32,000 bases of DNA from Candidatus Saccharimonadota bacterium (GTDB lineage: Bacteria > Patescibacteriota > Microgenomatia > UBA1406 > GWC2-37-13). The position numbers and the translations under genes were made by a program. Below, in pieces: positions 10,356 to 13,266 of this stretch. The DNA lies in contig CP066689.1 of NCBI GenBank assembly GCA_016432445.1, positions 420,001 to 452,000 on the forward strand, written 5' to 3'. Below the pieces are notes generated by a model that was not told the origin of the DNA, did not search any database, and was given only the letters and a program-made list of their open reading frames with translations. The number at the start of each line of letters is the position of its first letter. The first letter of the stretch is position 1.

Positions 10356-10392
10356 ATTACCCCATGATAAGAGAGTAAGGTAAGATTTCTGT

Positions 10393-10460
10393 AAAAAAAA
10401 AGCGCCGGTCGGGTAAGAAAGTCAGAAGAGTCTGACAAACTTGCCTTTCCGGCGTTTGAC
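10393..10460 (-). terminator. composite three-helix intrinsic terminator of cassette 3
   Basis: Minus-strand RNA reads GUCAAA-CGCCGG-AAA-GGCAAG-UUU-GUCAGA-CUCU-UCUGAC-UUU-CUUACC-CGA-CCGGCG-C-U9. The plus-strand A-run is at 10393-10401. Confidence 0.8.
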
Positions 10461-10467
10461 CTTTCAG

Positions 10468-10653
10468 TCATTCAGTTGGTCGAGGCTTGATGTTTTTGCG
10501 AGGCACCATCAGGCCTTTCCCAATGCCCGTTCTCACGTAGCAATCAGTGCTCCAATAAAATGCGACGGTGCCTTCGATGGGTTTAGGTATCTTGCCCTCG
10601 CTGTCTGGCTCAGGCTGGACAATGACAGCTGTCCCGACATCAATATGTGGCAA
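10468..10653 (-). CDS. 61-aa beta-rich small protein (S4), uncharacterised
   Basis: TTG start at 10653 with AGAGGTG 6 nt upstream. It shares the pattern G-T-x-V ... I-E-G-T ... C-x-V ... I-K-P with the 62- and 65-aa ORFs. Confidence 0.55.
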   Translation of the reverse strand: MPHIDVGTAVIVQPEPDSEGKIPKPIEGTVAFYWSTDCYVRTGIGKGLMVPRKNIKPRPTE

Positions 10654-10729
10654 TAGTTCACCTCTTTTCTATCCTCTAAGGACAAAATTTGATTGCTGAC
10701 CAAGGTGGAGAGGGCGGTCTCCCACGCAC

Positions 10730-11149
10730 TTACCTCAGAAGTCCAGCATCCTCTAAGATGGCTCGAGCCTGCTCGACGACATTCATGCATATTTCACAGT
10801 GATCTAGGTGAGTTGCAATCGAGTTATACTTTCCACCTTGCTTTCGATCACCGGTATCGTTCTTGGCGAAGTCAACCAAGTGAATCGGTAAGGGACAGAA
10901 ATCCCTTTTAAACATGAGTCTATCATGCAAGGCACTGTAGAATGTTTGTGTGCAACTTTCACATTGCTCTAAGACCTTCCTAAGGTTGGGAGGTAGGAGC
11001 AAGCTAAGCGGCAGTTTGCGGAGCTCTCGCAGTCTTAGTTCTATGGTAGGTTCCAGCCCTGTCCAGATGAGATCAAAAAGCTCCATGGGTACCCGGCTAG
11101 CCAGATATTTGGCTAAGTCGTGGTGGTCACAATCGGTAGTGGGTTCCAT
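10730..11149 (-). CDS. 139-aa helical Cys/His-rich protein with C-terminal HxxxCxxC motif, uncharacterised
   Basis: Longest ORF of cassette 3. CxxC at residues 63-66 and HLDHCEIC at residues 114-121 (10787-10810). Its ATG is 17 nt from the leader SD, and a 15-codon uORF occupies the optimal position. Confidence 0.6.
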   Translation of the reverse strand: MEPTTDCDHHDLAKYLASRVPMELFDLIWTGLEPTIELRLRELRKLPLSLLLPPNLRKVLEQCESCTQTFYSALHDRLMFKRDFCPLPIHLVDFAKNDTGDRKQGGKYNSIATHLDHCEICMNVVEQARAILEDAGLLR

Positions 11150-11308
11150 TCGGATATCATTCCTCTCTCCTTACTCCGCCCTTAGCAAGGAATACAAAGA
11201 CAAGAGTTTATCTTCATATTCCTTGCCAGGACAGATACATAACAACTGAATTTTCAAAGTACTATAAGCAAAAGATAGGCATGCGAAAGCCTAGGTTTAT
11301 TTGATATG
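11150..11308 (-). promoter_or_regulatory. conserved structured 5' leader, copy A (cassette 3)
   Basis: P1 11276-11280/11289-11293. Invariant motif ATTCAGTTGTT (complement of 11241-11251). P2 11185-11194/11217-11226 and P3 11196-11200/11211-11215. SD at 11167-11172. Confidence 0.65.
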
Positions 11309-11314
11309 GGAAGA

Positions 11315-11356
11315 ATTTTATCAGAAATAAAGGGCAAAATCAAACTACTATGGGAC
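11315..11356 (-). promoter_or_regulatory. sigma70-type promoter of cassette 3 with conserved upstream box
   Basis: Minus strand reads CCCATAGTAGTTTGATTT. The -35 TTGATT is at 11338-11343, followed by a 17-nt spacer and -10 TAAAAT at 11315-11320. Confidence 0.7.
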
Positions 11357-11376
11357 AGCCTTGTAACTTTGGAGAT

Positions 11377-11448
11377 AAAAAATAGCGCTCGGAAGGAAAG
11401 AAAGTCATGAAAGTCATGACAGACCTGCCTTACGAGCGCTCGTTTGAG
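11377..11448 (-). terminator. composite three-helix intrinsic terminator of cassette 2
   Basis: Outer stem AGCGCUCG/CGAGCGCU (11433-11440 with 11384-11391). Inner hairpin GUCAUG-ACUUU-CAUGAC, followed by A-U6. Confidence 0.75.
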
Positions 11449-11454
11449 ATGATC

Positions 11455-11643
11455 TCAGCTGTTTGCCGGGAAAGGCTTGATGGTAGCGTTTAAGCAAACT
11501 GTGGGTGTACCGTTGACTACGACGAGGCACCAAGTGGAGTTGTATGGCTCTCGGTAGATGCCATGTACAGGTCTGTTGGAACCGTGGAGTTGTGCTGTGA
11601 CGTGATCTCCGCGCTGAACGCCTTGTCTAGGATGATTTGCCAT
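11455..11643 (-). CDS. 62-aa beta-rich small protein (S3), uncharacterised
   Basis: ATG at 11643 is preceded by GAGGAGG. The longer 80-aa track ORF would overlap the upstream gene. The ATG at 11655 is a weaker alternative. Confidence 0.55.
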   Translation of the reverse strand: MANHPRQGVQRGDHVTAQLHGSNRPVHGIYREPYNSTWCLVVVNGTPTVCLNATIKPFPANS

Positions 11644-11662
11644 TTTCCTCCTCATTTCCTTC

Positions 11663-11860
11663 TTAGTTGACTGCGCTTGCGATAACGGCGGTTTCAATTC
11701 CCTTGACTAAACAGGTATGATTATTGCCGTAATCATCGCGAACGATGCAGATTCCGTCATCGTAGTAATCCGTCAGTGTACCTTCTACGGTCTCCAAGGT
11801 AGGACGGTGAATGGCGAGTATTGCCTTCACTCGCGTACCTAGTGGAATTTCATCTAACAT
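11663..11860 (-). CDS. 65-aa beta-rich small protein (S2), uncharacterised
   Basis: ATG at 11860 with AAGGAGG 6 nt upstream. The pattern GTRV...VEGTLTDYYDDGICIVRDDYGNNHTCLV suggests a small beta-barrel. Confidence 0.6.
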   Translation of the reverse strand: MLDEIPLGTRVKAILAIHRPTLETVEGTLTDYYDDGICIVRDDYGNNHTCLVKGIETAVIASAVN

Positions 11861-11903
11861 TTGAATCCTCCTTTCTAGTCTTTTTGAGTTGATTTTTCGT
11901 TGG

Positions 11904-12170
11904 CTAGCCGATCAGTTGATGCCGGCGCTGGCGAAGCCGGAACTCTGATGCATAGTACGGTAGATAGAAGCCGCTGATGTGACCGATGCAAAATACTACA
12001 AAGGCGAATAGATACGGCCATCCATCGGGAACAAGGCTTGGGCCGATCCATAAGATCACGATTCCGGCGAGGAATAATACCGGTTTTGTATTCGGTGTAG
12101 GTTCGATGAATTCCATGCCGAGTCTTACCCCGAAAGTAAACCATACTGCCAGGAACAGTGCAAAAGACAT
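11904..12170 (-). CDS. 88-aa three-TM small membrane protein, paralogue 2
   Basis: ATG at 12170 with AAGGAGG 7 nt upstream. Three hydrophobic segments and a basic C-terminal tail. About 70% identical by eye to the 12463-12723 product. Confidence 0.75.
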   Translation of the reverse strand: MSFALFLAVWFTFGVRLGMEFIEPTPNTKPVLFLAGIVILWIGPSLVPDGWPYLFAFVVFCIGHISGFYLPYYASEFRLRQRRHQLIG

Positions 12171-12334
12171 CTCGTTTCCTCCTTTCTCCTTACTCTATCC
12201 TTAGCAAGGAGTATAAGGAGAAAAGTTTATCCTCATGCTTCTTACTAAGGTAAAAGTAAGGTAACAACTGAATATGTTAAAGTGCATTGGATAAGACGAC
12301 AGATAGACAGCAAAAGCCTAAACTCATCTTACTC
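12171..12334 (-). promoter_or_regulatory. conserved structured 5' leader, copy B (cassette 2)
   Basis: P1 12304-12308/12316-12320. Motif is the complement of 12263-12273. P2 12199-12208/12241-12250 and P3 12215-12219/12230-12234. An 8-nt anti-SD (12214-12221) is exactly complementary to the SD (12185-12192). Confidence 0.65.
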
Positions 12335-12340
12335 AGACGC

Positions 12341-12382
12341 ATTTTATCAAAATGGAGAATTTAAATCAAACTACTATGGGGT
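12341..12382 (-). promoter_or_regulatory. sigma70-type promoter of cassette 2 with conserved upstream box
   Basis: -35 TTGATT at 12364-12369, 17-nt spacer, -10 TAAAAT at 12341-12346. The same 18-nt box CCCATAGTAGTTTGATTT is present. Confidence 0.7.
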
Positions 12383-12385
12383 TAT

Positions 12386-12455
12386 AAAAAAAGCGCCCGT
12401 AGAAGTAAGTGCCGTGAAAGTCACGGTAAACTTACTCTTTCGAGCGCATTTGACC
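12386..12455 (-). terminator. composite three-helix intrinsic terminator of cassette 1
   Basis: Minus-strand RNA reads GUCAAAU-GCGCUCG-AAA-GAGUAAG-UUU-ACCGUGA-CUU-UCACGG-C-ACUUACUUC-UA-CGGGCGC-U7. Confidence 0.8.
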
Positions 12456-12462
12456 TTTCGGT

Positions 12463-12723
12463 TCATTCAGTTGTTTGCTGCCGGCGAAGCCGAAGCTCTG
12501 TTGCGTAGTACGGCAGGTAGAAGCCACATATGGTGCCGATAATGAATGTTGCTATTGCAAAAAGATACGGCCATCCGTTGGGAACGAGACTTTTTCCGAC
12601 CACGAGCATTACTATTCCGGCAAGTAAAAGTACAGGTTTCATCTTCGGTGTAGGTTCGATGACTTCCATGCCAAGTCTTACCCCGAAAGCAAACCATACT
12701 GTCAGGAACAGTATAAAAGACAT
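12463..12723 (-). CDS. 86-aa three-TM small membrane protein, paralogue 1
   Basis: ATG at 12723 with AAGGAGG 7 nt upstream. It is a paralogue of the 11904-12170 product (MSF.LFL.VWF.FGVRLGME.IEPTP..KPVL.LAGIV...SLVP.GWPYLFA...GFYLPYYA.E.RLR). Confidence 0.75.
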   Translation of the reverse strand: MSFILFLTVWFAFGVRLGMEVIEPTPKMKPVLLLAGIVMLVVGKSLVPNGWPYLFAIATFIIGTICGFYLPYYATELRLRRQQTTE

Positions 12724-12738
12724 CGTTTTTCCTCCTTT

Positions 12739-13002
12739 CTACCCTTTGCAGGTAAGTATTGAGATTTTGAGATTCTCGTAGTCGCCGCGTGTCAAGGTTA
12801 ATAGGTCTTCTGCTGTCGGTAAGGCGATGCGATCAAGATCCTTCAAGTGTTTCTTGGTTCCGTCCAAAAACCTGACGTCTATATCGCACCGGTTTATTCC
12901 TTCAATTACGCAGATTCGGCCTCCGTGAATAATAATTGCTCCGGCTGGACCCTTAAGATTGGTTGTTAACACTTGGACATACATATGGTTCATTTTCTTC
13001 AT
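12739..13002 (-). CDS. 87-aa small soluble protein (S1), uncharacterised
   Basis: ATG at 13002 lies 7 nt after the leader SD (13010-13015). The 121-aa track ORF would read through the conserved leader. Confidence 0.6.
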   Translation of the reverse strand: MKKMNHMYVQVLTTNLKGPAGAIIIHGGRICVIEGINRCDIDVRFLDGTKKHLKDLDRIALPTAEDLLTLTRGDYENLKISILTCKG

Positions 13003-13155
13003 TCTCTTTCTCCTTACTTCACTCAAGCAAGGGATATAAGGATAAAGATTATCCTCGTATTTCTTACTTGAGACGAAGCAAAAAGTAAACAACTGAATTT
13101 TCAAAGTACTACAAATTAAAAATAGGTATGCAAAAACCTAAGTTTGTTTTGTTAA
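13003..13155 (-). promoter_or_regulatory. conserved structured 5' leader, copy C (cassette 1)
   Basis: P1 13123-13127/13136-13140. Motif is the complement of 13087-13098. P2 13022-13031/13063-13072 and P3 13039-13043/13051-13055. SD at 13010-13015. Confidence 0.65.
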
Positions 13156-13161
13156 TGAGCA

Positions 13162-13203
13162 ATTATACTAAATTTTTAGCCTTAAATCAAACTACTATGG
13201 GAC
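13162..13203 (-). promoter_or_regulatory. sigma70-type promoter of cassette 1 with conserved upstream box
   Basis: -35 TTGATT at 13185-13190, 17-nt spacer, -10 TATAAT at 13162-13167. The same 18-nt box is present. Confidence 0.75.
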
Positions 13204-13266
13204 AATGATCTGAGGTTTTTAGGTGGATAAACGATTAAATGTGTGGTAAAATATATTATTCTTAAT

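Follow-up and report, generated by a model that had tools for sequence, protein, structure and literature searches.

Why should a short motif in the leader of a transcript be complementary to the sequence at the last stop codon of that same transcript? The question is raised by three tandem minus-strand cassettes, referred to here as c1 (12385-13205), c2 (11372-12384) and c3 (10388-11358), which lie in a 32,000-nucleotide (nt) stretch of DNA (the window; contig CP066689.1, positions 420,001 to 452,000) from the 1.1-Mb genome of an uncultivated Roizmanbacteria bacterium. The three cassettes are paralogues, are flanked as an array by an NHL/thioredoxin gene and typA, and have a G+C content of 45-50% compared with ~35% in their surroundings. 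Each comprises, in this order, a sigma-70-type promoter, a leader of ~150 nt, small open reading frames (ORFs) without family matches and a conserved 3' module. A first-pass annotation of the window had noted the complementarity and offered two readings of it, namely long-range 5'-3' pairing within the mRNA, or inverted repeats in the DNA that delimit an exchangeable or invertible cargo segment. Our analysis argues for the former and suggests a more specific architecture: the cassettes are probably protein-coding units, each with its own promoter, enclosed in a shell of the type found in ribosomal RNA (rRNA) operons, that is, a BoxA element coupled to a leader-trailer helix.

The leader motif ATTCAGTTGTT is invariant in c1-c3 and is located on the minus strand at 13098, 12273 and 11251. 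The BoxA-like elements next to it and the two strands of each predicted helix are as follows:

13099-13109, minus strand: BoxA-like element of c1, GUACUUUGAAA, a motif also present in the rRNA leaders
13087-13098, minus strand: leader strand of the c1 helix, AUUCAGUUGUUU
12465-12476, minus strand: trailer strand of c1, AAACAACUGAAU, which overlaps the final codons plus the U of UGA
12275-12285, minus strand: BoxA-like element of c2, GCACUUUAACA, matching 10 of the 11 positions of the consensus GYTCTTTAANA
12263-12273, minus strand: leader strand of c2, (A)UUCAGUUGUU
11454-11463, minus strand: trailer strand of c2, AACAGCUGAG, with the UGA stop inside it and two G-U pairs with the leader
11252-11262, minus strand: BoxA-like element of c3, GUACUUUGAAA
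11243-11251, minus strand: leader strand of c3, AUUCAGUUG
10470-10478, minus strand: trailer strand of c3, CAACUGAAU, overlapping the stop

The complementarity of the leader motif to the site at the last stop was borne out in all three cassettes. In c1, for which a 12-base-pair (bp) pairing had been reported, the arms (12465-12479 and 13084-13098; 15 nt each) are 93% complementary with 12 contiguous bp, and the 3' arm overlaps the codons ACU GAA UGA at the end of the ORF at 12463-12723. The 9-bp pairing of c3 (11243-11251 with 10470-10478), which overlaps the stop of the ORF at 10468-10653, was likewise recovered. For c2, the 10 bp including two G-U pairs stood, but the 3' arm had been placed at 11455-11464 and required correction to 11454-11463. 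When the leaders were represented by a 17-nt probe, the 3' site was the best partner in each of the three transcripts, with a clear margin over the next site in c1 (-15.0 versus -7.4 kcal/mol), and RNAfold prediction on the full transcripts assigned the helix a probability of 0.87-1.0 in c1 and 0.3-0.5 in c3. Short fixed probes were used instead of RNAduplex comparisons of whole leaders with whole 3' modules, which returned long duplexes scoring below shuffled sequences.

Does this complementarity exceed chance? Dinucleotide shuffles of the remainder of each transcript reached the 12 bp of c1 in 1% of cases (p ~0.01). Since c1-c3 are paralogous, they count as about one event, and function and descent are inseparable from the window alone. 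Taken by itself, the complementarity inside the window is marginally beyond chance; its significance derives from cassettes outside the window. One could thus suppose that the motifs of c1-c3 descend from one duplicated ancestor and that their complementarity is functionless, all the more so as c1 beats chance and c2 and c3 do not. We find this scarcely credible: diverged cassettes in four genera keep the complementarity with other sequences, and the rank test and cross matrix described below contradict it.

Relatives outside this organism were not recovered by DNA identity, exact patterns or cargo-protein searches. BLAST of the leader against 189 genomes of the family returned short chance matches only, two metagenome pattern scans gave no match, and the window has no match in Rfam; the exact 18-nt promoter box was matched 17 times in genome contigs, which equals the chance expectation and is taxonomically scattered, and once in viral contigs. 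A covariance model of the three leaders with their RNAalifold structure (R1) scored 41.9 bits on a fourth leader of this genome, diverged and 51 kb distant, and 33.3 bits on one in genus G164. The fourth cassette carries CUGCGGAAA at the motif position and UUUCCGCAG one nt past its last stop, and the G164 leader AUUCGGUUGU pairs with the 3' site ACAACCGAAU, a compensatory double change from A-U to G-C relative to the window. An nhmmer search and a BoxA pattern scan of the genome itself brought the total to at least 15 units, all with G+C-rich cargo and each with a private complementarity of 9-14 bp. Two further cassettes, in genera G021 and G140, were found with a sequence-only model of the 5' domain (R3); across 11 leaders RNAalifold gave no consensus pairs, and a MAFFT alignment of five leaders had misplaced the variable strand. 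Model matches in G020, G157, G566 and G591, as well as most weak R3 matches, were judged false upon inspection. The resulting set of 18 units (at least 15 from this genome, and three from the other genera of the family, G164, G021 and G140) contains at least eight helix types, including UUGCGGAAA, AUUCCUUAC, CAUUGUGCA, CUGUGCAGAA, AUUUAACUCGUG, UUAGGGUUCAGAUU, AGUUCAUUGAGU and ACGGGAAAG.

The G021 and G140 cassettes served as a blind test, in which the best complement of the 20 nt following the box lay where the G+C-rich zone ends, by a stop and before a terminator; in G021 it comprises 12 bp and is the top match in 4.8 kb, and in G140 it is the top match within the unit. In a family-wide rank test (probe, 20 nt from the last box base; target zone, the last 150 nt of the transcript as set by the terminator), the best partner lay within the target zone in 12 of 14 units, and the joint chance came to ~1e-6 when each helix type was represented by a single unit. 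When leaders were compared with 3' ends in a matrix, the own 3' end was the best partner for seven of eight class representatives. In nearly all units, some 10-14 nt behind the conserved box find their partner at or beside the last stop. The trailer strand overlaps the last stop or lies at most 2 nt past it in most units, is found 12-24 nt before the stop in two, and precedes the end of the intrinsic terminator by 55-140 nt. Helix sequence thus varies while complementarity is kept, which argues that base pairing, rather than a protein-binding site, is under selection. The first-pass annotation had proposed comparing leader and 3' motifs across homologous cassettes: the compensatory change is seen there between units with unrelated cargo, and the homologues retain the complementarity rather than lacking it. 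Elsewhere in the genome, two BoxA-like leaders situated 1.4 kb apart (G000:C1:759840 and 761247) have a near-identical variable strand, (C/U)GAGCUAGAUUGA, and are both complementary to a single trailer site near 761430, forming a nested or alternative bracket.

At the level of sequence, the arms are also inverted repeats of 9-12 bp around the cargo, and could in principle serve inversion or exchange of the cargo at the DNA level (phase variation of the fimS or inverton type). The genome does encode two large serine and two tyrosine recombinases, and a comparison of sense and antisense helix energies (sense favoured in 10 of 18 units, with equal means) is compatible with a strand-neutral constraint acting on DNA. 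Nevertheless, the arm sequence differs between cassettes, with at least eight types among the 18 units, so that they share no recombinase site; the arms of c2 contain two mismatches when read as DNA. Conservation of the leader runs ~90 nt inside the 5' arm, which is therefore not a homology boundary, and this arm always abuts a BoxA-like RNA signal that has no role in inversion. The cargo is co-oriented with the promoter in all 18 units, and five Logan assemblies from different runs, 100% identical to the window, contain the reference orientation only. As previously stated for the window, it encodes no recombinase: tyrosine and serine recombinase genes (PF00589, PF00239) are found only at 86.9, 137, 727 and 886 kb, the nearest being more than 290 kb from the locus at 430-433 kb. 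The reading of the arms as an invertible or exchangeable DNA segment was accordingly not sustained; we regard it as unlikely and accord it very little weight. Two other DNA- or RNA-level candidates were rejected, namely transposon terminal inverted repeats, because homology runs past both arms, and retron-like a1/a2 pairing, because the transcripts are protein-coding and the RNA does not include the conserved promoter. Long-range 5'-3' pairing in the mRNA appears, on comparative grounds, to be the reading that holds, given the compensatory change across unrelated cargo and the position of the strand directly 3' of the BoxA-like element.

What is this element? The conserved box, G(C/U)ACUUU(G/A/U)A(C/A)A, sits directly 5' of the variable leader strand, which begins 0-3 nt after it. 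The same box precedes the 16S gene of this genome, after a hairpin (GUACAUUGACAA at 695944), and the 23S operon has two copies of it (GCACUUUUAAAA at 630756 and GUACUUUGACAA at 630997; the 23S gene was located by pattern). The 16S leader-trailer helix, with a predicted energy of -67.6 kcal/mol, starts 2 nt past its box. Compared with the published BoxA consensus GYTCTTTAANA (PMC5725501), which is gamma-proteobacterial, the G164 box GCTCTTTAACA matches at 11 of 11 positions and the c2 box GCACTTTAACA at 10 of 11; the box of c1 and c3 is GTACTTTGAAA. In several units the pairing reaches the GCAC half-site of the box. Judged by its sequence, the cassette box is the same motif as the BoxA of this genome's 16S and 23S leaders; the genome also encodes NusB (85.5 bits), a SuhB-like protein (199 bits), Rho (89 bits) and RNase III (rnc). 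The nusB and rnc genes are adjacent on the same strand (G000:C1:675404-676130). The TTGACA inside the box was considered as a -35 element and rejected, no consistent -10 being present downstream.

The identity of the box bears on a second RNA-level explanation, according to which the 5'-3' helix is a Nus-independent fold-back lock that merely controls translation or RNase access, the box being an RNase or protein site unrelated to BoxA. Covarying 5'-3' helices are indeed known from hok and aapA1 (PMC9841398, PMC5416894, PMC6733600) and a 14-bp pairing from Bacillus subtilis hbs (PMC5737220); moreover, some of the cargo consists of small membrane proteins, and a hairpin that mimics or sequesters the Shine-Dalgarno (SD) sequence stands beside the helix strand in the leader. 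Against this explanation, the box motif is the one found in the genome's own 16S and 23S leaders, and the cargo is diverse, often multi-gene and cytosolic. A stable terminator lies downstream of the trailer strand, which therefore does not reach the extreme 3' end and cannot be freed by 3' trimming as in hok. No antisense gene is evident, although no search was aimed at antisense genes. We consider a lock of this kind unlikely.

The sequences downstream of the trailer strands are similar in all three cassettes, with the 3' module starting at CAACTGAATGA and a rod-like terminator at its end:

12386-12462, minus strand: 3' module of c1, with a small hairpin, a rod-like intrinsic terminator and a U run
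11377-11448, minus strand: 3' module of c2, with a small hairpin and terminator
10393-10467, minus strand: 3' module of c3, with a small hairpin and terminator

The start of the c3 module, UGAAUGACUGA (10464-10474, minus strand), holds stops in all three frames within 11 nt, so that any cargo frame closes there. The anatomy of the modules (unpaired seed, small hairpin, strong terminator) resembles that of a small RNA (sRNA), and a 3' module freed as an sRNA originating in the 3' untranslated region (UTR) might pair in trans, through its unpaired 5' seed, with its own and sister leaders in the manner of OppZ and CarZ, for which there is published precedent (PMC7398697). Cross-talk would be possible among c1-c3, which have one seed and one target in common. 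Such an sRNA fails to account for a target that always abuts BoxA, or for the layout of an rRNA leader and trailer, and the fact that in several units the pairing runs past the seed in both directions, into the BoxA half-site, suggests a clamp in cis. Its probability appears to us to be low.

We therefore return to the rRNA-style shell. The cassettes copy the layout of an rRNA leader around translated genes, and it is on this basis that the motif pair is read as a leader-trailer helix, in which AUUCAGUUGUU would form the 5' (leader) strand and the sequence at the last stop the 3' (trailer) strand. The remaining elements of this layout in the window are the following:

13162-13201, minus strand: c1 promoter, with the box CCCATAGTAGTTTGATTT at 13184-13201, including the -35 TTGATT, and the -10 TATAAT at 13162-13167
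12341-12380, minus strand: c2 promoter, with the box at 12363-12380 and an extended -10 ending at 12341
11315-11354, minus strand: c3 promoter, with the box at 11337-11354
13110-13150, minus strand: 5' leader hairpin of c1, in a boxB-like position and with a two-tier stem, from the RNAalifold structure used for model R1
13022-13072, minus strand: long leader hairpin of c1 (SD mimic or anti-SD), followed by the SD sequence GUAAGGAG at 13010-13017

The 18-nt promoter box CCCATAGTAGTTTGATTT shows no variation among c1, c2 and c3. A near-variant of it, CCTATAGTTTGATTT, is followed by TATAAT and lies 6 nt 5' of the ATG of an apparently leaderless gene (G000:C1:374719); the stretch of the box upstream of the -35 might serve this organism as a general promoter element.

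In the proposed mechanism, each cassette would be transcribed from its own sigma-70-type promoter, yielding in succession the 5' hairpin, the BoxA-like element, the leader strand, the long hairpin and the ribosome-binding site, then the cargo, the trailer and the terminator. NusB/NusE, bound to BoxA of the growing RNA, would tie this RNA to RNA polymerase, and the G+C-rich, foreign-looking cargo would then be transcribed in a Rho-resistant manner. As the trailer leaves the polymerase, the tethered leader strand would anneal to it and close the mRNA into a loop. In Escherichia coli, BoxA with NusB/NusE bound is thought to hold the leader strand near the RNA exit channel as the product loops out, so that it pairs with the emerging trailer (PMC10250234), and the rRNA complex rrnTAC joins the 5' end to the 3' end and stimulates processing by RNase III (bioRxiv 10.64898/2026.03.17.712431). 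Helix closure in the cassettes might lead to processing by RNase III, shield the 5' end or release Nus factors before the terminator; whether RNase III cleaves the cassette helices is uncertain. A ribosome terminating on the last gene would cover the trailer strand, so that forming the helix and ending translation of that gene should be mutually exclusive.

A bolder version, which we put forward tentatively and think doubtful, makes the shell a self-limiting antitermination device. Nus factors loaded on BoxA would shield foreign G+C-rich genes from Rho until the trailer, by pairing with the bases right beside BoxA (and, in several cassettes, with its half-site GCAC), strips them off. Once they are gone, the cassette's own terminator, 55-140 nt further on, could act. 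Were this so, the shell would be portable and autonomous, with acquired genes expressed without read-through into their neighbours, and terminating ribosomes might perhaps be handed back to the nearby start site.

Several observations weigh against the rRNA-style shell. We know of no experimental definition of BoxA in any bacterium of the Candidate Phyla Radiation (CPR). The cassette helices are short, with 9-14 contiguous bp (~20 with interruptions) compared with 25-40 bp in rRNA, and one family member, x608, has no clear helix. Within the window, shuffles reached the 9 bp of c3 in 36% of cases and the 7 Watson-Crick bp of c2 in 100%; the margins of the 17-nt probe over the next site are thin in c2 (-13.0 versus -12.9 kcal/mol) and c3 (-11.3 versus -10.1 kcal/mol), and full-transcript folding predicts a weak helix in c2, with a probability of at most 0.02. 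If G-U pairs matter, the mRNA strand would be expected to be favoured in the sense-antisense comparison, in which it led in 10 of 18 units with equal means. Transcription starts, the helix in vivo and its processing are predictions. Finally, BoxA of E. coli suhB represses expression (PMC5725501), and the direction of the effect may differ from the one envisaged here.

The genes wrapped by the shell are, in the window:

12739-13002, minus strand: c1 ORF S1, 87 amino acids (aa), without family match
12463-12723, minus strand: c1 ORF M, 86 aa, with three hydrophobic segments and no homologues outside its own genome
11455-12170, minus strand: c2 cargo, comprising an M paralogue (11904-12170), S2 (11663-11860) and S3 (11455-11643)
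10468-11149, minus strand: c3 cargo, comprising a 139-aa Cys/His protein with HxxxCxxC (10730-11149) and S4 (10468-10653)

Used as queries, the M protein and the 139-aa protein returned self-matches only, and no homologues were detected by a profile search of 400 genomes of the class or by a HMMER search of 1.84 billion representatives. Across the family, the cargo numbers from one to seven genes with products of 43-397 aa, of which many are cytosolic and some are small membrane proteins, and is almost wholly unannotated by Pfam and PHROGs, except for one ClpX zinc finger and one phage family match. Since the cargo consists of ORFs with SD sites, it is of the translated type and not a stable untranslated RNA. 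The phage family match, the sole clear phage link of any cargo, concerns a 61-aa ORF of the G140 cassette (L114, G140:C14, ~1606-1791), which matches phrog_15963 with E = 1.7e-14; the cargo of this cassette has a G+C content of 56%, compared with ~40% around it. In c2, the non-terminal M gene ends with CAACUGAU, followed by CGAAAAAUCAA (11911-11918, minus strand), which resembles a decayed trailer strand and 3'-module start. The sequence of this junction suggests that c2 originated by fusion of an M cassette with an S2-S3 cassette.

Some features at the borders of the cassettes are also worth recording. Cassette c9 (L083, G000:C1:598600-598695) begins ~40 nt past the 3' end of a transfer RNA (tRNA) gene (GGTTCGAATCCCC arm). 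The 3' ends of tRNA genes are typical landing sites for mobile DNA. Cassettes c4, c7 and that of G164 (L079, L082 and L068) have in common a TTTTT-CATGG(C/G)T after the terminator, and their starts read CCCATAG; the resulting short inverted symmetry of the termini (CCCAT...ATGGG) may indicate where the inserted DNA begins and ends.

BoxA/Nus complexes and leader-trailer helices are regarded as rRNA machinery, and few mRNAs are known to have BoxA alone. In the literature searched, we found no description of BoxA and a leader-trailer helix combined into a family of shells around cassettes of a CPR genome. On our reading, a complete rRNA-style shell would wrap at least 15 protein-coding, G+C-rich orphan cassettes in a 1.1-Mb genome and recur in other genera. 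If so, it would offer CPR bacteria with minimal genomes a route to express, and perhaps domesticate, foreign genes despite Rho, and it would provide a natural set of many orthogonal 5'-3' clamps for studying how RNA looping by transcription complexes assists long-range folding. The combination of BoxA and private helix could also serve to delimit transcription units in genomes that lack transcript data.

How, then, do the cassettes compare with known systems? Like switches of the fimS type, they have short inverted repeats of the 9-bp class around a segment, but fimS repeats flank a promoter, have a common sequence and are served by a dedicated neighbouring recombinase, whereas the cassette arms flank the cargo. 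The hok tac/fbi pairing and Helicobacter pylori aapA1 (PMC9841398, PMC5416894, PMC6733600) share with them a covarying helix that closes the mRNA between 5' UTR and 3' end, with an SD-sequestering hairpin nearby; there, however, the 3' strand forms the very end and is lost by 3' trimming, the product is one small toxin and an antisense RNA is the partner. The 14-bp 5'/3' pairing of B. subtilis hbs (Braun, Durand and Condon 2017, PMC5737220) similarly links RNase access, stability and translation, but concerns a single gene without BoxA, and has its 3' strand not on the stop codon but within the 3' UTR proper. In mRNAs preceded by BoxA (E. coli suhB and others; Baniulyte et al. 2017, PMC5725501), the element likewise occupies the 5' UTR, within ~100 nt of the first ribosome-binding site, and Nus factors have a role beyond rRNA; no leader-trailer helix is described for them, the effect in suhB is translational repression and Rho-dependent termination, and the cassettes differ further in numbering at least 15 unrelated carriers in a single 1.1-Mb genome. 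The closest counterpart is the leader of the rRNA operon (boxB-boxA-boxC, rrnTAC; PMC10250234; bioRxiv 10.64898/2026.03.17.712431), which has the same order of promoter, hairpin, BoxA, leader, product and trailer; the cassettes use the box of their own rRNA BoxA, space the leader strand 0-3 nt from it as compared with 2 nt in 16S, and maintain the helix by covariation. They depart from the rRNA operon in that the product is not a stable RNA but an mRNA that is translated and carries one to seven orphan genes, with G+C-rich, foreign-looking cargo, a trailer that overlaps the stop codon and an intrinsic terminator directly after it.

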